Source of the DNA: Escherichia phage WG01
Sequence record: NC_031928.1
Reading direction: 5' to 3' (one strand)
DNA length: 64,000 nucleotides
Of the stretch, positions 1,118-12,166 are shown piece after piece. A program made the translations under genes and the position numbers. Under the pieces are notes generated by a model. That model was not told the DNA's origin and did no database searches. It saw only the letters and a program-made list of their open reading frames with translations. Numbering within the stretch: the first letter of the stretch is position 1; the number at the start of each line of letters is the position of its first letter.

Positions 1118-3100
1118 ATGTCTTTATTATCACCGGGCATTGAGCTCAAAGAAACGTCCGTACAGAGTACTGTCGTTCGTAACGCAACGGGTCGTGCAGC
1201 GCTGGTTGGTAAATTCCAGTGGGGCCCTGCTTTCCAGGTAACTCAGATTACTAATGAAGTTGAACTGGTCGACTTATTTGGAGGTCCTAATAACGAAGTT
1301 GCTGATTACTTCATGTCGGGTATGAACTTCCTCCAGTATGGTAACGACCTTCGTACTGTTCGTGTTGTTAACCGTGAATTCGCTAAAAACGCGTCTCCGG
1401 TAGCGGGTAACGTCCAAACCACTATTACTACTGCAGGTTCTAACTATGCGGTAGGCGATAAAATTAATATCAAATATAACCAGACTGTTGTTGAATCTGA
1501 AGGTCGTGTAACTTCGGTCGATACAGACGGTAAAATTCTATCAGTGTTTATTCCTACCGGCAAGATTATTTCTTATGCTCGTTCTGTTAACCAGTATCCG
1601 AACCTAGGCCCTGCGTGGACTGCTGAAGTTACTTCTGCCTCTTCCGGTGTTTCTGGTACTATTACTGTCGGTAAAATTGTAACCGATTCCGGTATTCTGT
1701 TGACTGAAGCAGAGAACAGTGAAGAAGCTATTACTTCCCTGGAGTTCCAAGCATCTCTTAAACAGTTTGGTATGCCTGGTGTGGTCGCCCTTTATCCTGG
1801 TGAAATTGGTAGTACTCTGGAAGTTGAAATTGTTTCTAAAGCGGCTTATGATGCTGGTTCTACTAAAATGTTGGATATTTATCCAAACGGTGGTACTCGT
1901 GCTTCTGTAGCTAAAGCGGTATTCAACTACGGCCCGCAAACAGATGACCAATACGCAATTATTGTTCGTCGTGATGGCGCTATCGTAGAATCTGTCGTAC
2001 TTTCTACCAAAGAAGGTGAAAAAGACGTTTACGGTAATAACATTTATCTTGACGACTATTTCGCTAAAGGTACTTCTAACTATATTTTTGCTACCTCTTT
2101 GAACTGGCCTAAAGGCTTCAGTGGTATCATTAATCTTATGGGTGGTGTATCTGCTAACGATCAGGTTACTGCGAGTGATTTGATGCAGGGTTGGGATTTG
2201 TTTGCCGACCGTGAAGCACTCCATATTAACCTTTTGATTGCTGGTGCCGTTGCCGGTGAAGGTGATGAAGTTGCTTCTACCGTCCAGAAACACGTTGTTA
2301 GTATTGCTGATGAACGTCAGGATTGCTTGGCATTTATTTCTCCTCCTAAAGGACTGTTGGTTAACGTTCCATTGACTCGTGCAGTAGATAATCTTATCGA
2401 CTGGCGTACCGGTGCAGGTACTTTCGATACCAACAACATGAACATTAGCACCACTTATGCTGCTATTGATGGTAACTATAAATATCAGTATGACAAATAT
2501 AATGACGTAAACCGTTGGGTGCCTCTGGCCGCTGATATGGCTGGTTTGTGTGCACGTACTGATGATGTTTCTCAGCCTTGGATGTCTCCGGCAGGTTATA
2601 ACCGTGGCCAGATTCTTAACGTTCTGAAATTGGCAATTGAACCGCGCCAAGCTCAACGTGACCGCATGTACCAAGAAGCTATTAACCCAGTTGTTGGTTT
2701 TGCTGGTGGCGATGGTTTCGTATTGTTTGGTGATAAGACTGCAACCAAAGTTCCATCTCCGATGGACCACATTAACGTTCGCCGTCTGTTCAACATGCTT
2801 AAGAAAAATATCGGTGATGCCTCTAAATATAAACTGTTTGAATTGAACGACAACTTCACTCGTTCAAGCTTCCGTATGGAAGTTTCTCAGTACTTAGATG
2901 GTATTAAGGCACTTGGTGGGATTTATGAAGGACGTGTGGTTTGTGATACTACAGTGAACACCCCTGCGGTTATCGACCGTAATGAGTTTATTGCTAATAT
3001 CTACGTTAAACCGGCCCGTTCTATTAACTACATCACGTTGAACTTCGTTGCAACGAGCACTGGTGCTGATTTTGATGAATTGATTGGACCTTTAGTATAA
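1118..3100 (+). CDS. 18: tail sheath protein
   Basis: 660 aa, MSLLSPGIELKETSVQ... N-terminus and length as T4 gp18; SD AAGAGGA upstream; late promoter TATAAATA at 1081. Confidence 0.95.
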   Translation: MSLLSPGIELKETSVQSTVVRNATGRAALVGKFQWGPAFQVTQITNEVELVDLFGGPNNEVADYFMSGMNFLQYGNDLRTVRVVNREFAKNASPVAGNVQTTITTAGSNYAVGDKINIKYNQTVVESEGRVTSVDTDGKILSVFIPTGKIISYARSVNQYPNLGPAWTAEVTSASSGVSGTITVGKIVTDSGILLTEAENSEEAITSLEFQASLKQFGMPGVVALYPGEIGSTLEVEIVSKAAYDAGSTKMLDIYPNGGTRASVAKAVFNYGPQTDDQYAIIVRRDGAIVESVVLSTKEGEKDVYGNNIYLDDYFAKGTSNYIFATSLNWPKGFSGIINLMGGVSANDQVTASDLMQGWDLFADREALHINLLIAGAVAGEGDEVASTVQKHVVSIADERQDCLAFISPPKGLLVNVPLTRAVDNLIDWRTGAGTFDTNNMNISTTYAAIDGNYKYQYDKYNDVNRWVPLAADMAGLCARTDDVSQPWMSPAGYNRGQILNVLKLAIEPRQAQRDRMYQEAINPVVGFAGGDGFVLFGDKTATKVPSPMDHINVRRLFNMLKKNIGDASKYKLFELNDNFTRSSFRMEVSQYLDGIKALGGIYEGRVVCDTTVNTPAVIDRNEFIANIYVKPARSINYITLNFVATSTGADFDELIGPLV

Positions 3101-3225
3101 TCTATTATCCCAGGCTGTAATATAAAGAACCTAAAACCATTATACCATGAGTTTGGTTACAGCGTACATCACGTAGAATTGCGCCTGGGATTGATTATTC
3201 TTTAGGAATATGATTTATCAACTGT

Positions 3226-3233
3226 TATAAATA
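3226..3233 (+). promoter_or_regulatory. late promoter TATAAATA upstream of gene 19
   Basis: Exact consensus; followed by leader hairpin 3247-3267. Confidence 0.6.
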
Positions 3234-3246
3234 AATTAATCAGAAC

Positions 3247-3267
3247 GTTCCTGGTGTGTCCAGGAAC
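3247..3267 (+). promoter_or_regulatory. stem-loop in gene 19 leader
   Basis: GTTCCTGG-TGTG-TCCAGGAAC between late promoter and SD. Confidence 0.4.
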
Positions 3268-3285
3268 TGACTTAAGAGGCATCCC

Positions 3286-3777
3286 ATGGAGTTGACAGAT
3301 ATCACTCGTGCGTTTGAGTCAGGTGACTTTGCACGCCCTAACCTTTTCGAAGTGGAAATTCCATTTCTGGGTAAAAACTTTAGCTTTAAATGTAAAGCAG
3401 CACCTATGCCGGCAGGCATTGTAGAAAAAGTACCGGTTGGCTACATGAACCGTAAAATTAACGTAGCCGGTGACCGTACGTTTGATGATTGGACCATTAC
3501 CATTTATAACGATGATGCACATGACACCCGTCAAGCAATTGTCGATTGGCAGAATCTCTGTCACGGTATGACCAATGAAATTACCGGTGCAGCACCTGCA
3601 GAATATAAGAAACAAGCAGTAGTTCGCCAGTTCCATCGTGACGGCAAGACTGTGACCAAAGAAGTTACAATTTACGGCTTATGGCCTACTAACGTTGGTG
3701 AAGTCCAGATGGATTGGGACAGCAACAACGAGGTAGAAACTTTCGAATCTACGTTCGCTATCGATTGGTGGGAATGA
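3286..3777 (+). CDS. 19: tail tube protein
   Basis: 163 aa, same length as T4 gp19; follows gene 18; SD AAGAGG. Confidence 0.93.
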   Translation: MELTDITRAFESGDFARPNLFEVEIPFLGKNFSFKCKAAPMPAGIVEKVPVGYMNRKINVAGDRTFDDWTITIYNDDAHDTRQAIVDWQNLCHGMTNEITGAAPAEYKKQAVVRQFHRDGKTVTKEVTIYGLWPTNVGEVQMDWDSNNEVETFESTFAIDWWE

Positions 3778-3778
3778 G

Positions 3779-3786
3779 TATAAATA
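3779..3786 (+). promoter_or_regulatory. late promoter TATAAATA upstream of gene 20
   Basis: Exact consensus, just after gene 19 stop. Confidence 0.6.
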
Positions 3787-3834: not shown

Positions 3835-5409
3835 ATGGCAAACTTTAATACAATATTAAGTTTTCTTAAGCCATGGGCTAATGAAGACGAAAAAGAATAT
3901 AAACAACAAATTAATAACAATTTAGAGTCTGTCACCGCACCTAAGCTTGATGATGGCGCTCGCGAAATTGAGACACAAGAGCAAAATATTCCTTATAATG
4001 CTCTTATGCAACAGATGTTTGGTAGTAATGAGCCTGAAGTTAAAAATACCAGGGAACTTATTGATACCTACCGTAATTTAATGAACAACTATGAAGTCGA
4101 CAACGCCGTACAGGAAATTGTGTCTGACGCTATTGTCTATGAGGATGATAAAGAAGTAGTTGCATTGAATTTAGACGGGACAGAATTTAGTCAAGCAATT
4201 AAAGATAAAATCTTGGCCGAATTCAGTGAAGTTTTAAACCTTTTAAATTTCCAACGTAAAGGTACTGACCATTTCCAACGCTGGTATGTAGACTCAAGAA
4301 TTTTCTTTCATAAAATTATAAACCCTAAAAAAATGAAAGATGGCGTACAAGAGCTTCGTCGCTTAGACCCACGCCAAGTCCAATATATTCGTGAAATCGT
4401 TACACGTATGGAAGATGGCGTTAAAGTTGTAGACGGATATCGCGAGTTTTTCGTTTATGATACAGGCCATGAAAGTTATTGCGCTGATGGACGCATTTAT
4501 TCAGCCGGGACTAAAGTTAAAATTCCTCGTGCTGCAGTGGTTTATGCTCATTCTGGATTATTAGATTGTTGTGGTAAAAACATCATTGGCTATTTGCAAC
4601 GTGCTATTAAGCCTGCAAACCAGCTTAAATTGATGGAAGACGCAATGGTCATCTACCGTATTACACGTGCTCCTGACCGTCGTGTGTTTTATATCGATAC
4701 AGGTAATATGCCTTCACGTAAGGCTGCAGCACAAATGCAACATATCATGAACACGATGAAAAACCGTGTGGTGTATGATGCTTCGACAGGTAAAATTAAA
4801 AACCAACAACACAATATGTCCATGACTGAAGACTATTGGTTGCAACGTCGTGATGGTAAAGCGGTAACAGAAGTTGATACAATGCCAGGTGCTACTGGTA
4901 TGAGTGATATGGATGACGTTCTTTATTTCCGCACAGCACTTTACCGTGCGTTGCGTGTTCCTGAATCACGTATCCCTAGCGAGTCTAATTCTGGTGTTAT
5001 GTTTGATGCCGGTACAGCAATCACTCGTGACGAATTAAAATTCTCTAAATGGATTCGTCAACTACAAAACAAATTTGAAGAAATTTTCCTAGACCCGTTA
5101 AAAACAAACCTCATTCTTAAAAAGATTATTACAGAAGATGAGTGGGAAAAGGAAATAAATAATATTAAAGTTACGTTTAACCGTGATAGCTATTTCAGTG
5201 AAATGAAAGATGCTGAAATCATGGAACGCAGAATCAATATGCTAACGATGGCTGAACCATTTATTGGTAAGTATATTTCACATCAAACGGCTATGAAAGA
5301 TTTCCTCCAAATGACCGACGAAGAAATTAATCAAGAAGCTAAGCAAATTGAAGAAGAGTCTAAAGAGGCTCGTTTCCAAAACCCAGATGAAGAAGAAGAG
5401 GATTTCTAA
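3835..5409 (+). CDS. 20: portal vertex protein
   Basis: 524 aa; strong recalled similarity to T4 gp20 ([10 protein letters not shown]..., [21 protein letters not shown]...); SD GGAG. Confidence 0.95.
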
Positions 5410-5654
5410 TGGAAGATTTAATCGAAGCTATTAAATCAAACGACCTCGTAGCAGTTCGTAAAGCAGCAGCCCCGCTTATCGAATCTCGAGTAACCGCTTT
5501 GATTGAAGCCCGTAAAGCAGAAATTGCTCGCTCCGTTATGATTGAAGGCGAAGAAGCTGACGAAGATGACGAAGACGACGAAAAATCCGATAAAGCAGAT
5601 AAGAAAGACAAAAAAGAATCTGACGATGCGGATGATGACGAGGACGACGAATAA
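5409..5654 (+). CDS. 67: prohead core protein
   Basis: 81 aa with acidic C-terminal tail; TAATG coupling to gene 20; position as T4 gene 67. Confidence 0.8.
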
Positions 5655-6747: not shown

Positions 6748-7563
6748 ATGCTTAAAGAACAACTGATCGCCGAAGCACAGAATATTGATGCTTCCGTTGC
6801 TCTTGACAGTATTTTCGAATCAGTTAATATTTCTCCGGAAGCAAAAGAAACTTTCGGCACTGTATTCGAAGCTACCGTCAAGCAACACGCCGTGAAACTG
6901 GCTGAATCTCACATCGCTAAAATCGCTGAAAAAGCGGAAGAAGAAGTCGAGAAAAATAAAGAAGAAGCTGAAGAAAAAGCCGATAAGAAAATCCAAGAAG
7001 CTGCCGGTCGTTTCCTTGACCACGTTGCTAAAGAATGGATGGCTGAAAACCAGCTGGCTGTTGATAAAGGTATTAAAGCCGAACTGTTCGAATCCATGTT
7101 GATGGGTATGAAAGAACTGTTTGTTGAACACAATGTGGTTGTTCCAGAAGAAGCAGTAGATGTTGTTGCTGAAATGGAAGAAGAGCTCCAAGAGCAGAAA
7201 GATGAAACCGCTCGTCTGTTCGAAGAAGTTGGTATGCGCGATGCGTATATTAATTACGTACAGCGTGAAGTTGCTGTTACGGAAGCAACTAAAGACCTGA
7301 CCGAATCTCAAAAAGAAAAAGTCAGTTCTCTGGTAGAAGGCATGGATTATTCCGATGCATTCGGTAAAAAAATTGGCGCTATTGTTGAAATGGTTAAAGG
7401 TCAGTCTGACGTTGGAAACCCAATCACCGAAGCCGCTATAAATAAAAATGTAGACGATGCTGCGGCACTGAATTACATTTCAGAAGCAGTTGAAGAAAAA
7501 GGCGCTAAGCCTACCCTGTCCTTCGCGGACCTGTCTGCAATCGCAGCATCACGAATTTCTTAA
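6748..7563 (+). CDS. 22: prohead core scaffold protein
   Basis: 271 aa, acidic, coiled-coil-like (EEEVEKNKEEAEEKADKK); late promoter TATAAATA at 6713. Confidence 0.88.
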   Translation: MLKEQLIAEAQNIDASVALDSIFESVNISPEAKETFGTVFEATVKQHAVKLAESHIAKIAEKAEEEVEKNKEEAEEKADKKIQEAAGRFLDHVAKEWMAENQLAVDKGIKAELFESMLMGMKELFVEHNVVVPEEAVDVVAEMEEELQEQKDETARLFEEVGMRDAYINYVQREVAVTEATKDLTESQKEKVSSLVEGMDYSDAFGKKIGAIVEMVKGQSDVGNPITEAAINKNVDDAAALNYISEAVEEKGAKPTLSFADLSAIAASRIS

Positions 7564-7584: not shown

Positions 7585-9144
7585 ATGAAAAAGAATGCAT
7601 TAGTTCAAAAATGGTCCGCTCTGCTGGAAAACGAAGCCCTTCCTGAAATCGTGGGTGCTTCTAAACAAGCTATCATCGCTAAAATTTTCGAAAACCAGGA
7701 ACAAGACATCCTGACTGCTCCGGAATATCGTGATGAAAAAATCTCTGAAGCATTTGGTTCTTTCCTGACCGAAGCTGAAATTGGTGGTGACCACGGTTAT
7801 GATGCTACCAATATCGCAGCTGGCCAGACTTCTGGTGCTGTAACTCAGATTGGGCCGGCAGTAATGGGTATGGTTCGTCGTGCTATTCCTCATCTGATTG
7901 CTTTTGATATTTGTGGTGTTCAGCCTCTGAATAACCCTACCGGCCAGGTATTTGCCCTTCGTGCAGTTTATGGTAAAGACCCTATCGCTGCTGGCGCTAA
8001 AGAAGCTTTCCATCCGATGTATTCTCCGGATGCTATGTTCTCTGGTCAGGGTGCTGCTGAATCTTTCGAAGCACTGGCTGCAAGCAAAGTTCTGGAAGTT
8101 GGTAAAATTTATTCTCACTTCTTCGAAGCTACCGGTGCTGCACACTTCCAGGCTGTTGAAGCCGTAACCGTTGATGCTGCTGCTACTGATGCCGCTAAAC
8201 TGGATGCTGCTGTTACCGCTTTGATTGAAGCTGGTAAGTTGGCTGAATTGGCTGAAGGTATGGCTACTTCTATCGCTGAACTTCAGGAAGGCTTTAACGG
8301 TTCTACCGATAACCCGTGGAACGAAATGGGCTTCCGCATCGACAAACAAGTTATCGAAGCTAAATCCCGTCAGCTGAAAGCAAGCTACTCTATCGAACTG
8401 GCACAGGACCTTCGTGCAGTACACGGTATGGATGCAGATGCTGAACTGTCCGGTATCCTTGCTACCGAAATTATGCTCGAAATCAACCGTGAAGTTATCG
8501 ATTGGATTAACTACTCTGCACAGGTTGGTAAATCTGGTATGACCAACACCGTTGGCGCTAAAGCTGGTGTGTTTGACTTCCAGGACCCGATTGATATCCG
8601 TGGTGCTCGTTGGGCCGGTGAGAGCTTTAAAGCCCTTCTGTTCCAGATTGATAAAGAAGCAGCCGAAATCGCTCGTCAGACCGGTCGTGGTGCTGGTAAC
8701 TTCATCATCGCTTCCCGTAACGTAGTTAACGTACTGGCTGCAGTTGATACTTCTGTAAGTTATGCAGCTCAAGGTCTGGGTCAAGGTTTCAACGTTGACA
8801 CAACCAAAGCAGTATTTGCCGGTGTTCTTGGTGGTAAATATCGCGTTTACATCGACCAGTATGCACGTTCCGATTACTTCACCATCGGTTATAAAGGCGC
8901 TAACGAAATGGACGCAGGTATCTACTACGCTCCGTACGTTGCACTGACCCCGCTGCGTGGTTCCGATCCGAAGAACTTCCAACCGGTAATGGGCTTCAAA
9001 ACTCGTTACGGTATCGGTATCAACCCGTTCGCTGACCCGTCTGCACAGGCTCCTACCAAACGTATTCAGAGCGGTATGCCTGACATCGTTAACAGCCTTG
9101 GTCTGAATGGTTATTTTCGTCGGGTTTATGTCAAAGGAATTTGA
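7585..9144 (+). CDS. 23: major capsid protein
   Basis: 519 aa; size and sequence character as T4 gp23; strong codon bias; followed by a UUCG-loop terminator. Confidence 0.95.
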   Translation: MKKNALVQKWSALLENEALPEIVGASKQAIIAKIFENQEQDILTAPEYRDEKISEAFGSFLTEAEIGGDHGYDATNIAAGQTSGAVTQIGPAVMGMVRRAIPHLIAFDICGVQPLNNPTGQVFALRAVYGKDPIAAGAKEAFHPMYSPDAMFSGQGAAESFEALAASKVLEVGKIYSHFFEATGAAHFQAVEAVTVDAAATDAAKLDAAVTALIEAGKLAELAEGMATSIAELQEGFNGSTDNPWNEMGFRIDKQVIEAKSRQLKASYSIELAQDLRAVHGMDADAELSGILATEIMLEINREVIDWINYSAQVGKSGMTNTVGAKAGVFDFQDPIDIRGARWAGESFKALLFQIDKEAAEIARQTGRGAGNFIIASRNVVNVLAAVDTSVSYAAQGLGQGFNVDTTKAVFAGVLGGKYRVYIDQYARSDYFTIGYKGANEMDAGIYYAPYVALTPLRGSDPKNFQPVMGFKTRYGIGINPFADPSAQAPTKRIQSGMPDIVNSLGLNGYFRRVYVKGI

Positions 9145-9175
9145 TAACATAAGTTATTAATTCTTAAAATTATTT

Positions 9176-9200
9176 GGGAGACTTCGGTCTCCCATTCTTG
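9176..9200 (+). terminator. rho-independent terminator after gene 23
   Basis: GGGAGAC-TTCG-GTCTCCC followed by T-rich tract. Confidence 0.7.
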
Positions 9201-9208
9201 TTTCTGTA

Positions 9209-9475
9209 TTATGCAATCTTAACTCGGCGGTTGATGATATCACGGAAGTCAATACGATTTTCTTGGATTTTCAGCCAGTTACCAGATTTGTCTTTGGTAT
9301 GGGTAGAGTATTCACCGTTCCACCAGAAGTCGGTAGCATAAGCCATGGCTTCGTATTTCTTAACTAAGGCATTCACTGCATTACCATTAGGATTGTTACC
9401 GAATTTTTCTACCAGAGCTTTGATGTCTTTATCAAGAGCGGAAAGAGTAGTACGAATAAAGTTTAACTTGTTCAT
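9209..9475 (-). CDS. hypothetical protein (88 aa), early-promoter-driven ORF between genes 23 and 24
   Basis: ORF-track start 9490 lies inside the SD (ATGAGGAGATTAAAAATG); real start taken as the ATG at 9475; own early promoter upstream. Confidence 0.55.
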   Translation of the reverse strand: MNKLNFIRTTLSALDKDIKALVEKFGNNPNGNAVNALVKKYEAMAYATDFWWNGEYSTHTKDKSGNWLKIQENRIDFRDIINRRVKIA

Positions 9476-9494
9476 TTTTAATCTCCTCATGTTT

Positions 9495-9536
9495 TGATAG
9501 GTCTATAGTAACATGTGAGAATCTTGCTGTAAACAA
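9495..9536 (-). promoter_or_regulatory. sigma70-like early promoter cassette (copy A)
   Basis: -35 GTTTAC, spacer, extended -10 TGTTACTATAG, leader ACCTATCAAAACATGAGGAGA. Confidence 0.55.
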
Positions 9537-9540
9537 CTTT

Positions 9541-9548
9541 TATAAATA
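9541..9548 (+). promoter_or_regulatory. late promoter TATAAATA upstream of gene 24
   Basis: Exact consensus about 30 nt before the ATG. Confidence 0.6.
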
Positions 9549-9576
9549 AACATATACCCTCAATAAGGAAAGCGCA

Positions 9577-10860
9577 ATGGCAAAGATTAACGAATTACTG
9601 CGCGAGTCAACAACTACTTCCAGCAACTCATTGGGTCGCCCTAATCTTGTTGCTTTGACCCGTGCTACAACCAAATTGATTTACCGTGATATTATCGCCG
9701 AACAACGTACTAGCCAGCCTATTGCTGCACTGTATGGTGTCAAATATCTTACCCCTGATAATGAATTTAGTTTCCAGACAGGTGCCTCTTATGGTGGTGA
9801 AGTTGGTTCTAAAGACCGTGAAACTATCCCAGAACTCACAGATAAGGCCCAGGCGATTGCTCAGGGTGAATATTTCAAGTACCAGAATGTGGTTTATAAG
9901 GCTCTTAAAGCAAGCCCACTCGCGTCCACTAGCGCCCCAGAATTGGCTGATGCTCTTCAAGAAGGTTTAGTGTCATTAACATGTCGTCTGGTTCCTGATG
10001 CTGCCCATACCACTAAATTTGAAGCGAGTGATGTAGAAATCTCTGATGCTGTATTCCAGGTTAATAAATGGAATGCTCCGGTTAAGACCCGTAAATTGAA
10101 GACGGCTTTGACTGTAGAATTAGCGCAGGATATGGAATCAAATGGCTTTGACGCGCCGGCGTTCTTAGAAGACCTCTTGGCTACAGTAATGGCAGATGAA
10201 ATTAATAAAGACGTTCTGCAATCTCTAATAACCGTATCCAAACGTTATAAAGTTACTGGTGTATCTGATAACGGCATCATCGATTTGTCTTATGACAGTG
10301 CTCCTGAATCTGCACGTAAACTTTATGAACTCGTTTGTGAGATGAATTCTGAAATCCAGAAAACTACTTCTTATTCTGGCACGTTTGTTGTGGCTTCAAG
10401 TCGTGTGGCTGCAATGCTTGCAGGTTCTGGCTGGTTAAAACATAAACCCGAAGATAATAATTGGCTTCCGGAAACTGCATACGGATATTTGTTGAATGGT
10501 CTGCCTCTGTTTTGTGACGTTAACAGTCCATTAGATTATGTTACCGTTGGTGTTAAAGAGAATTACGGCGGTAATGAAGTTGTCGGTTCTATTTTCTACG
10601 CTCCCTATACCGAAGGCTTAGATTTAGATGACCAAGAACACGTCGGTGCTTATAAGGTTATTGTTGACCCGGATTCATTACAACCTTCTATTTCTCTGAT
10701 GGTTCGTTATGCACTATCAGCTAACCCGTACACCGTGGCTAAAGACGATAAAGAAGCTCGTGTTATCGATGCAACCAATATGGATTTAATGGCTGGACAG
10801 AGCAATATGTCTTATCTGGTTGGCGTTAAACTTCCGGCAATTATTTACGAGGCTGATTAA
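9577..10860 (+). CDS. 24: capsid vertex protein
   Basis: 427 aa, N-terminus MAKINELLRESTTT... as recalled for T4 gp24; late promoter TATAAATA at 9541. Confidence 0.9.
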   Translation: MAKINELLRESTTTSSNSLGRPNLVALTRATTKLIYRDIIAEQRTSQPIAALYGVKYLTPDNEFSFQTGASYGGEVGSKDRETIPELTDKAQAIAQGEYFKYQNVVYKALKASPLASTSAPELADALQEGLVSLTCRLVPDAAHTTKFEASDVEISDAVFQVNKWNAPVKTRKLKTALTVELAQDMESNGFDAPAFLEDLLATVMADEINKDVLQSLITVSKRYKVTGVSDNGIIDLSYDSAPESARKLYELVCEMNSEIQKTTSYSGTFVVASSRVAAMLAGSGWLKHKPEDNNWLPETAYGYLLNGLPLFCDVNSPLDYVTVGVKENYGGNEVVGSIFYAPYTEGLDLDDQEHVGAYKVIVDPDSLQPSISLMVRYALSANPYTVAKDDKEARVIDATNMDLMAGQSNMSYLVGVKLPAIIYEAD

Positions 10861-12140
10861 TGTCTAAGATTGTAGACCTAATTAAAGAATCCACATTGAC
10901 GGCTGCCAGCTCGGTTGGCCGTCCTGCTCTTCTTTCATACACCCAAGCAACTAATAAACGAATCTTTAAAGCCCTAGTTGCTGAACAAAAAACAAATCAA
11001 CCGGTTGCTGCTCTGTATGGGGTACGTGTACTGAATCCTGACGACAAAATGACTTATCTTGGTGGAGCAACATTTGCGGGCCAGATTGGTATGACGGAAC
11101 GTGAAAATATTCCAGAATTTACTGATTCATCTACAGCTTATGCGGTCGGTGATATGTTCCAGTTTGAAAGCGTAGTGTTTAAAGTTCTAGAAGCATCTCC
11201 TTTCGCCGGAACCACAGAAACCAACCTCAGCGAAGTTATTTCTGAAGCAGTGGCAGCCGGCCATATCCGTATGGTGTCGGATGCTGCTATTACTTCTAAA
11301 TTTGAACAAGGCCATCCTGAAATTGCTGAAACCGGATTCCGTATCGACAAATGGCAATCTGAAGTTAAATCACGTAAACTGAAAACTTCATTGACAGTCG
11401 AATTAGCCCAAGACCTAGAATCTAACGGGTTTAATGCTCCTAATTTCGTTGAAAATCTGCTAGGCATTCAAATGGCAGAAGAAATTAATAAGGATGTATT
11501 ACAGTCATTAATTACCGTGAGCTCTCGTTTTAAAGTCCAGGGTGTTTCTGAAAAGGGTGTATTAGACCTTACCAACCCTCGCTACGATAATGCCCAGGAC
11601 CGTGCTCGCACATTATATTATTATATGTGTGAGATGAACTCTGCCGTCCAACGACAGACTTCTTTTGCCGGGACTTATGCAGTAGCTAGTTCTCGTTGTG
11701 CTGCTATTCTCGCCGCCTCTGGTTGGGTTGAGAAAAAGGAAGACCAGGACGAATTGGCTTATGGTATATTAAAGAATGGCCTACCACTTTATGCCGATAT
11801 GAATAGTCCATGTGATTATGTTATTGTTGGTGTAAATGCCCAGATGGGTGAAGGACAGACGGTCGCATCTTTATATTATGCGCCTTATACGGAAGGTTTG
11901 AATGTGGTTGACGAAGAAGGTGATACTTCAGTTGGTGAATTTAAGGTTATTGTTGACCCGGAAAGCTTACAACCTACAGTAGCATTGCTTGCCCGTTATG
12001 CATTGACTGCAAACCCTTATACCGTCGCTAAGGACGATAAAGAAGCCCGCATTATTGATGGTTCTGATATGGACAAAATGGCTAATCAAAGTCAATTGAG
12101 TTCTTATCTCGGCGTAAAATTACCGCCTTTAGAAAAATAA
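10860..12140 (+). CDS. capsid vertex protein paralog (gp24-like, diverged)
   Basis: 426 aa, collinear with gp24 (shared blocks RKLKT.LTVELAQD.ESNGF.AP.F, INKDVLQSLITVS, ANPYTVAKDDKEAR.ID); TAATG coupled to gene 24. Confidence 0.85.
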   Translation: MSKIVDLIKESTLTAASSVGRPALLSYTQATNKRIFKALVAEQKTNQPVAALYGVRVLNPDDKMTYLGGATFAGQIGMTERENIPEFTDSSTAYAVGDMFQFESVVFKVLEASPFAGTTETNLSEVISEAVAAGHIRMVSDAAITSKFEQGHPEIAETGFRIDKWQSEVKSRKLKTSLTVELAQDLESNGFNAPNFVENLLGIQMAEEINKDVLQSLITVSSRFKVQGVSEKGVLDLTNPRYDNAQDRARTLYYYMCEMNSAVQRQTSFAGTYAVASSRCAAILAASGWVEKKEDQDELAYGILKNGLPLYADMNSPCDYVIVGVNAQMGEGQTVASLYYAPYTEGLNVVDEEGDTSVGEFKVIVDPESLQPTVALLARYALTANPYTVAKDDKEARIIDGSDMDKMANQSQLSSYLGVKLPPLEK

Positions 12141-12160
12141 AAGGGACCTTACGGTCCCTT
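12141..12160. terminator. bidirectional terminator between gp24 paralog and rnlB
   Basis: AAGGGACC-TTAC-GGTCCCTT flanked by A-run and T-run. Confidence 0.65.
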
Positions 12161-12166
12161 TATCGT

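Follow-up and report, generated by a model that had tools for sequence, protein, structure and literature searches.

The window analysed here, a 64,000-nucleotide (nt) stretch of DNA from Escherichia phage WG01 (sequence record NC_031928.1), carries two adjacent genes of the type that encodes the T4 capsid vertex protein gp24, whereas T4 itself has a single gene 24. According to the listing of open reading frames (ORFs), the first, referred to here as 24A or A, occupies positions 9577–10860 and encodes 427 amino acids (aa), and the second, 24B or B, occupies positions 10860–12140 and encodes 426 aa; both are on the + strand and both start with ATG. The two genes overlap by one base in the motif TAATG (10858–10862), in which A ends as ...GCT GAT TAA and base 10860 serves at once as the last base of the stop codon and the first base of the B start codon (10860–10862). 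The order of genes around the pair is that of T4: genes 22 (6748–7563) and 23 (7585–9144) are followed by 24A and 24B and then by the convergent rnlB, hoc and inh, with a small minus-strand ORF (9209–9490) between gene 23 and 24A.

Both products are of gp24 length (about 420–430 aa), lack the long N-terminal propeptide of gp23 and match Pfam family PF07068 (Gp23 family) at 328 bits for A and 324 bits for B, against a cut-off of 24.4. Compared with each other by BLASTP, they are collinear from residue 1 to residue 422/424, with 234 of 428 positions identical (55%), 77% positives and 10 gap positions (E 5e-176). T4 gp24 (PDB 1YUE) is matched by A at 660 bits (E 1.4e-197) and by B at 505 bits (E 1.4e-150, residues 1–423), while the score of B against gp23 chains, 48 bits, is about ten-fold below its gp24 score; identity to a Tequatrovirus gp24 is 70% for A and 56% for B. 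By these alignments B is a full-length paralog of gp24 and not of gp23. A first-pass annotation of the same DNA, made from the letters alone, had described a 426-aa ORF directly behind the 427-aa gene 24 with a TAATG overlap, collinear with gp24 over its full length and only about half identical to it, and had taken the first copy to be the closer one to T4 gp24. Each of these statements agrees with the values above, and the three conserved blocks that it quoted are all found in the A/B alignment.

Expression signals of the pair

A T4-type late promoter motif, TATAAATA, is located at 9541–9548 on the + strand, 29 nt 5′ of the 24A start codon, followed at 9565–9569 on the same strand by a Shine-Dalgarno-like AAGGA identified by reading of the sequence. 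When we scanned for TATAAATA, no copy was found between 9549 and 12140, i.e. none within A or B. Over the whole window the motif has 16 matches, as compared with 6.5 expected by chance, a count that no shuffle reached; 11 of the 16 are on the + strand, mostly in the late head-gene region, and ten + strand copies fall in the first 15.2 kilobases (kb). The same arrangement is seen in related loci: 24 of 26 have the motif 33–37 nt 5′ of A, and none of the 26 has it inside A. On the other side of the pair, a terminator-like hairpin with a 9-base-pair stem including 5 G-C pairs is found at 12140–12161, between 24B and the convergent rnlB; it was called on both strands and has a T-rich tail on either side. 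Since the only late motif near the pair precedes A, with no second one at the junction and a terminator behind B, late co-expression of A and B, as proposed in the first-pass annotation, is the natural reading, and the two genes would then form one late bicistronic unit. A separate promoter for B was considered and rejected, as TATAAATA is absent from the inside of A in the window and in the 26 related loci, and sigma-70-like matches occur at chance level. Codon adaptation was higher in A than in B in the window and in 6 of 7 other genomes, by only ~0.02–0.08 and relative to a single-gene reference, and was not used as evidence of expression.

The translational coupling that had also been claimed for the pair stands in part. 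The overlapping stop and start codons speak for it and make coupling of B to A plausible; however, B has a Shine-Dalgarno-like GAGG of its own (10849–10852, + strand), which falls within the last codons of 24A at a spacing of 7 nt from the ATG, and GAGG or a similar motif is found at the equivalent position in related A/B junctions, so that coupling is not the only possible route to initiation at B.

Distribution and constraint of the second gene

The 2.9-kb region containing the pair is 99.8% identical to that of Escherichia phages vB_EcoM_FB and Bp7, 99.3–99.7% identical to that of E33, PSD2002, QL01, LQ5, ABTNLS3 and IME540, and 85–93% identical to that of JS10, JS98, IME08 and the remaining Dhakaviruses. 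The window phage is thus a Dhakavirus, a T4-like phage of the JS98/Bp7 type. Orthologous pairs occupy the equivalent position (23, small minus-strand ORF, 24a, 24b, convergent rnlB) in JS98, JS10, IME08, Bp7, QL01, VR5, VR20 and VR26, as well as in Salmonella phage S16 and its relatives. In JS98, to whose 24a and 24b the products of the window are 95% (A) and 91% (B) identical, the two proteins measure 426 and 427 aa, compared with 427 and 426 aa in the window, and in JS98, IME08, VR5 and VR26 stop and start codons abut with a gap of 0 in place of the one-base overlap of the window.

The pair has been named before. In the JS98 record (EF469154 / NC_010105) the genes are 24a and 24b, 'gp24 head vertex protein', IME08 and JS10 use the same names, and in the Lithuanian VR phages (VR5, VR20 and VR26) the products are called capsid vertex protein I and II. 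Since GenBank already names the pair, the duplication itself is not new; it has been a known, annotated trait of JS98-type phages for years. The abstract of the 2004 article by Chibani-Chennoufi et al. (J Bacteriol 186:8276) is said to mention a 'gene 24 duplication in JS98', and in the searchable literature we found no open-access paper on the duplication of gene 24. What is added here is that B represents an old, separately conserved clade of paralogs, always coupled to A and strongly constrained, that it is probably processed like gp24, and that the single-gene state of T4 is probably derived.

Used as a query against 5.8 billion proteins, B retrieved a sharply bounded clade of 21 clusters that share 67–90% identity with B and no more than 58% with A or T4 gp24, while all matches outside the clade are at most 63% identical to B. 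Within the clade, identity ranges from 67 to 100%; B of the window is 83–91% identical to the B copies of other isolates, and its identity to A copies and T4-type gp24s does not exceed 58%. A B-type gene is present in 124 of 1,467 gp24-bearing phage genome records (about 8%) and in many uncultivated contigs. The records belong to Dhakavirus, Gaprivervirus and Gelderlandvirus (the last including S16, STML-198, STP4-a, Melville and CGG4-1), to Erwinia phages Cronus, IT22 and FBB1, and to a Proteus phage, and throughout these groups and many uncultivated T4-like phages A and B co-diverge as a linked pair. All eight diverged metagenomic members of the clade that were inspected lie directly 3′ of another gp24 gene, itself 3′ of gene 23. 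In IMG/VR, an A-type gene is found directly 5′ of the B-type gene in 16 of 16 B-bearing loci, and 8 further loci have one canonical gp24 only. The distance from the A stop to the B start is −4 to +1 nt across 26 loci (−1 nt in the window). In the 1,467 phage records, the 24 IMG/VR loci and the 21 B-clade protein clusters, a B-type gene was never found alone.

T4 itself has a single gp24 according to the first-pass annotation, and phages of the T4 type carry one copy here. The RB27 locus reads 22-23-24-rnlB, with one gene 24 and rnlB directly after it, and tblastn located gp24 at a single place in each record of Tequatrovirus, Karamvirus, PM2, 4S and EcS1. At E <= 1e-20, PM2, 4S, EcS1 and PG7 have one gp24 place each, and in RB27 and other T4-type records only gp24 and gp23 were hit. 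One record labelled Dhakavirus, Escherichia phage 04086 (L009, OR842557), also has a single gp24, at 2501–3781, 68% identical to A and 54% to B and with rnlB directly after it; its gp23 annotation is truncated, and the record may be misassigned or mosaic.

The ratio of non-synonymous to synonymous substitution rates (dN/dS) between orthologs, calculated by the Nei-Gojobori method, is 0.035–0.069 for A and 0.022–0.085 for B, as low as or below that of gp23 in the same pairs of genomes, and each gene is under strong purifying selection. Over 14 genomes the A distances correlate with the B distances (Mantel r 0.908, p 2e-4), with B diverging at ~0.77 times the rate of A. Between A and B, dS is saturated, and at the DNA level only short imperfect repeats are shared, the longest gapless one being 63 nt at 73%; on these two grounds a recent duplication or gene conversion was rejected. 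The chance that B is a young copy in decay or without activity, or else an artefact of assembly, is therefore practically negligible, which disposes of the recent inactive duplicate that the first-pass annotation had named as grounds for refutation. Nothing beyond the tandem arrangement speaks for it, whereas the ORF is intact in every genome, dN/dS stays at 0.02–0.09, nucleotide similarity between the copies is low, and the pair is kept across several genera in about 124 independent phage records and many metagenomic contigs.

Age and origin of the pair

A neighbour-joining tree of 57 sequences (corrected distances, 100 bootstraps) places the B clade as a monophyletic group with a bootstrap of 92, and a bootstrap of 93 unites the Jiaodavirus and Tegunavirus gp24s with all A copies and the T4-type single genes, B excluded. 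Within that larger group the A copies do not stay together. The A copy of the metagenomic contig L014 groups with the gp24s of Tequatrovirus, Karamvirus and Moonvirus (bootstrap 99) and that of L015 falls inside the 4S/PM2/PEi20 group (bootstrap 100), while the A copies of L016–L020 form a clade of their own (bootstrap 100) and those of Dhakavirus, Gaprivervirus and Gelderlandvirus join the A copy of L021 (bootstrap 99). As different A copies group with different single-copy gp24s, the A copies are paraphyletic, and since T4 gp24 nests among them, it is the single-copy state that looks derived. The internal branching of the B clade mirrors the arrangement of A. Further, A-to-A distances between genomes with the pair reach 0.53, more than the mean of 0.39 from A to T4, a depth which suggests that the T4-, Karamvirus- and Dhakavirus-type gp24 genes separated after the pair had arisen. 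This is the simplest reading of the tree, and on it B would have been lost at least three times, including once on the line leading to T4.

That B instead originated as a gp24 gene transferred laterally from a divergent T4-like lineage, which landed beside the resident gene, appears to us somewhat unlikely; such an origin would fit any function of B. It would account for the branching of B outside the clade of all A copies and the Jiaodavirus, Tegunavirus and T4-type gp24s, and for within-genome A-to-B distances (0.62–0.75) that are larger than those from A to Jiaodavirus (0.46) or Tegunavirus (0.52), B being only slightly further than A from distant outgroups. Exchange of cassettes at the gp24 locus, described below, also speaks for it. 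However, as no genome with a B-type gene alone is present among the records, loci and clusters searched, a donor lineage is not in evidence, and a burst of change after duplication in situ would yield an identical tree.

Several points temper the view of a very old pair. The tree is distance-based and its deep nodes are weak (bootstrap 23–41), and a burst of change after duplication, or an old lateral capture of B, gives the same picture as a very old duplication and cannot be told apart from it. Moreover, the gp24 locus is recombinationally mosaic: gp23 of L014 is 96% identical to Jiaodavirus gp23, yet its A copy is Karam/T4-like. When L014 (2067–6278) is set against Klebsiella phage KLB2 (L006), the former carries a B copy and the latter a single Jiaodavirus-type gp24, a mismatch that points to exchange of gp24 cassettes between lineages. 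Owing to this mosaicism, what appears as loss of B in T4 could in part be cassette exchange.

A comparable discordance was observed closer to the window. Between its 7585–12140 region, of the Bp7 type, and JS98 (L001), dS rises from 0.13 in gp23 to 0.66 in 24A and 1.29 in 24B, and dN from 0.010 to 0.040 and 0.067, respectively. The vertex genes of these two types are thus far more diverged than gp23, which points to mosaic replacement at the gp24 locus.

The second gene product and its probable place at the capsid vertex

To locate the differences between the copies, 27 sequences of the B clade were set against 91 canonical ones, comprising A copies and single-copy gp24s. In both groups 137 positions are conserved and identical, and 13 are fixed differently. 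Seven of the 13 fall within residues 25–57 in T4 numbering (V25L, A26S, T32N, L34R, Y36F, K56R and Y57V, canonical to B), the remainder being Y108F, P244Q, I261V, Y267F, E335Q and L415Y. In addition, I-domain linker 2 and the stretch directly behind it (T4 residues 139–163) show conservation specific to the B clade; residues 346–355, conserved in canonical gp24, are variable in B and include a one-residue insertion; and the C-terminus KLPPLEK is near-invariant in B. In T4, residues 11–20 of gp24 extend onto the neighbouring hexamer once the head has expanded, residues 26–29 pair with an I-domain linker that belongs to the next subunit of their pentamer, residues 143–154 of linker 2 are stabilised by nearby capsomers and residues 348–359 form a flexible loop (PMC9546572). 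The differences are thus concentrated in the N-arm (25–57), in the linker 2 region and in the 346–355 loop. In T4 the N-arm pairs with a neighbour in the same pentamer and reaches the adjacent hexamer, and the linker 2 region meets neighbouring capsomers (PMC9546572). Because the fixed differences fall mainly in such neighbour-setting elements and not in the core fold, we infer that B forms pentamers of its own, whose contacts would differ somewhat from those of A.

The gp21 prohead protease of T4 has the well-established consensus L/I-x-E. A motif of this kind is located at the cleavage point in both copies, LLRE↓S in A and LIKE↓S in B, and [LI]-x-E-S ends at residue 9–11 in 27 of 27 B-clade sequences, with x freely variable. 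In T4, 10 N-terminal residues are cleaved from gp24 (PMC9546572), and mature chains start at residue 11. Retention of the motif is what one would expect were B processed by the prohead protease and so present inside proheads, and cleavage of B by an enzyme of this type is probable. Taken together, A and B share with T4 gp24 (1YUE, 5VF3, 7VRT/7VS5) their size, Pfam family, N-terminal cleavage motif, neighbourhood and late promoter motif, while B differs from it by being 56% identical, by the 13 clade-fixed substitutions, by the insertion near residue 350 and by its KLPPLEK C-terminus.

Cumulatively, these findings make it rather probable, in our judgement, that 24A and 24B constitute one late bicistronic head-gene unit encoding two members of the T4 gp24 penton family that diverged long ago and are each functional, with B most likely a second, specialised penton protein. 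According to this model, both products would enter the prohead, both would be trimmed by a gp21-type prohead protease and both would sit at five-fold vertices, B assembling into separate pentamers at some of the 11 non-portal vertices and not mixing freely with A. Occupation of some vertices by the second copy is one of two roles suggested in the first-pass annotation, the other being substitution for gp24 under certain conditions; as suggestions both are reasonable. The pair would have existed before the T4-, Karamvirus- and Dhakavirus-type gp24 genes radiated, the single gene of T4 being the result of loss of B. T4 itself offers a parallel in the pair of gp23 and gp24, in that gp24 is viewed as having arisen by duplication of gene 23 (PMC10580926): like A and B, it is an adjacent duplication of a capsid gene of the HK97 fold in the late head cluster, followed by specialisation. 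Nevertheless, gp23 and gp24 of T4 are ~25% identical, unequal in length and of known distinct roles (hexamers vs. pentamers), whereas A and B are 55% identical and about equal in length, and a division of labour between them is putative.

Besides the weak deep nodes of the tree and the mosaicism of the locus, three considerations weigh against this model. No expression, virion proteomics or capsid-structure data were found for any pair-bearing phage in the searchable open-access literature, and B is accordingly a putative component of virions. In T4, all 55 gp24* subunits of the three vertex classes have essentially one conformation (PMC9546572), so that a second penton protein is not called for on geometrical grounds alone. 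Finally, the AlphaFold2 monomer model of B, built on a 46-sequence alignment, is weak, with a mean predicted local distance difference test (pLDDT) score of 59.7, too poor for the fixed A/B differences to be placed on coordinates. Foldseek with this low-confidence model gave T4 gp24 chains as the best matches (E 2e-37, template-modelling score 0.47), followed by gp23, and an HK97-like fold of B, with the insertion domain specific to T4, is implied by its 56% identity to a solved structure.

It is conceivable, and we put it forward only tentatively, that the capsid has two classes of pentons with one paralog for each, for example the apical vertex vs. the ten cap-edge vertices, or a portal-proximal vs. 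a distal ring, and that this state is ancestral in much of the Tevenvirinae, T4 having lost the second gene.

Alternatively, B might be a conditional or back-up penton, A and B being interchangeable at all vertices, each performing better under some temperature, host or defence, and capsids being mixed or made of a single protein. Both copies do possess the complete features of gp24, and gp24 genes diverge much more than gp23 between close relatives, as seen in the dS values for Bp7 vs. JS98. Members of the group, the VR phages, are low-temperature coliphages. Vertex proteins are also under immune pressure, the capsid vertex protein of T6 being needed to trigger type IV Thoeris, from which A380V escapes (PMC13243611, 2026). 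We nevertheless consider such a role unlikely. Genes that abut or overlap and are co-transcribed in every locus would always both be made and would serve poorly as a conditional switch, adding a paralog does not remove a sensed protein, and simple redundancy does not predict tight selection on both copies together with co-divergence deeper than the A-to-T4 distance. Moreover, the equivalent of A380 of T6 and T4 lies in the block RYAL(S/T)ANPYTVAKD, conserved in A and B, and is Ala in both.

A role outside the vertex, whether as an assembly or scaffold-phase factor, a minor portal-adjacent subunit of the shell or a docking site for head fibres, is in our estimate very unlikely. In its favour are collagen-repeat fibre and Hoc-C-like genes situated directly 3′ of B on the same strand in several relatives, as well as the B-specific conserved residues near I-domain linker 2 and the variability of the 346–355 loop where canonical gp24 is conserved. 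The window, however, is without such downstream genes, and B retains the 137 shared conserved positions together with the length and cleavage motif of gp24, resembles gp24 far more than gp23, and gives no sign of having lost pentamer-forming elements.

A specialised second penton protein would bear on several questions. T4 serves as the standard model of a large prolate capsid, and a single vertex protein is usually taken as the norm; with T4 gp24 nested among the A copies, a different state reads as ancestral. As the second gene is kept under strong selection, it would do something that the capsid of T4 does without. The location of B would show whether the vertices of a capsid can be individually specialised, and would inform capsid engineering and display on pair-bearing phages, among which are the Salmonella phage S16 group and JS98/Bp7-type phages considered for therapy. 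It also bears on immune sensing, given the requirement for a vertex protein in the triggering of type IV Thoeris (PMC13243611).

The position following 24B is variable among pair-bearing relatives. In several of them a collagen-repeat fibre gene (PF01391, phrog_5073) lies right after 24B on the same strand; IME08, for instance, has an extra collagen-like fibre gene 3′ of 24b, which the window does not. The coordinates of this slot are 4461–5648 in IME08 (L002), 2676–4506 in L016, 4890–6427 in L017, 2634–4140 in L018 and 6326–7841 in L020. In L016 and L017 the fibre gene is followed by a gene whose short product resembles Hoc-like decoration proteins in their capsid-binding C-terminal part alone (phrog_1149, E about 1e-37), and an ORF of ~166 aa occupies the position of this gene in L018 and L020. 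An unrelated ORF of ~240 aa with no family match follows B in L014 and L021. The slot may be a module for head fibres or decoration, or merely an insertion slot with late expression. For the window, a head fibre tied to B was considered and rejected, since the collagen-like and Hoc-C-like genes have no counterpart there and the sole similarity is to the ordinary hoc gene.

Upstream of the pair, gene 23 is followed by a second bidirectional hairpin at 9175–9194. The product of the minus-strand ORF at 9209–9490 is 93 aa long and matches phrog_6003 (E 8e-50), a family of unassigned function; the ORF occupies the slot in which T4-type phages often carry the homing endonuclease gene segD, and IME08 has both.

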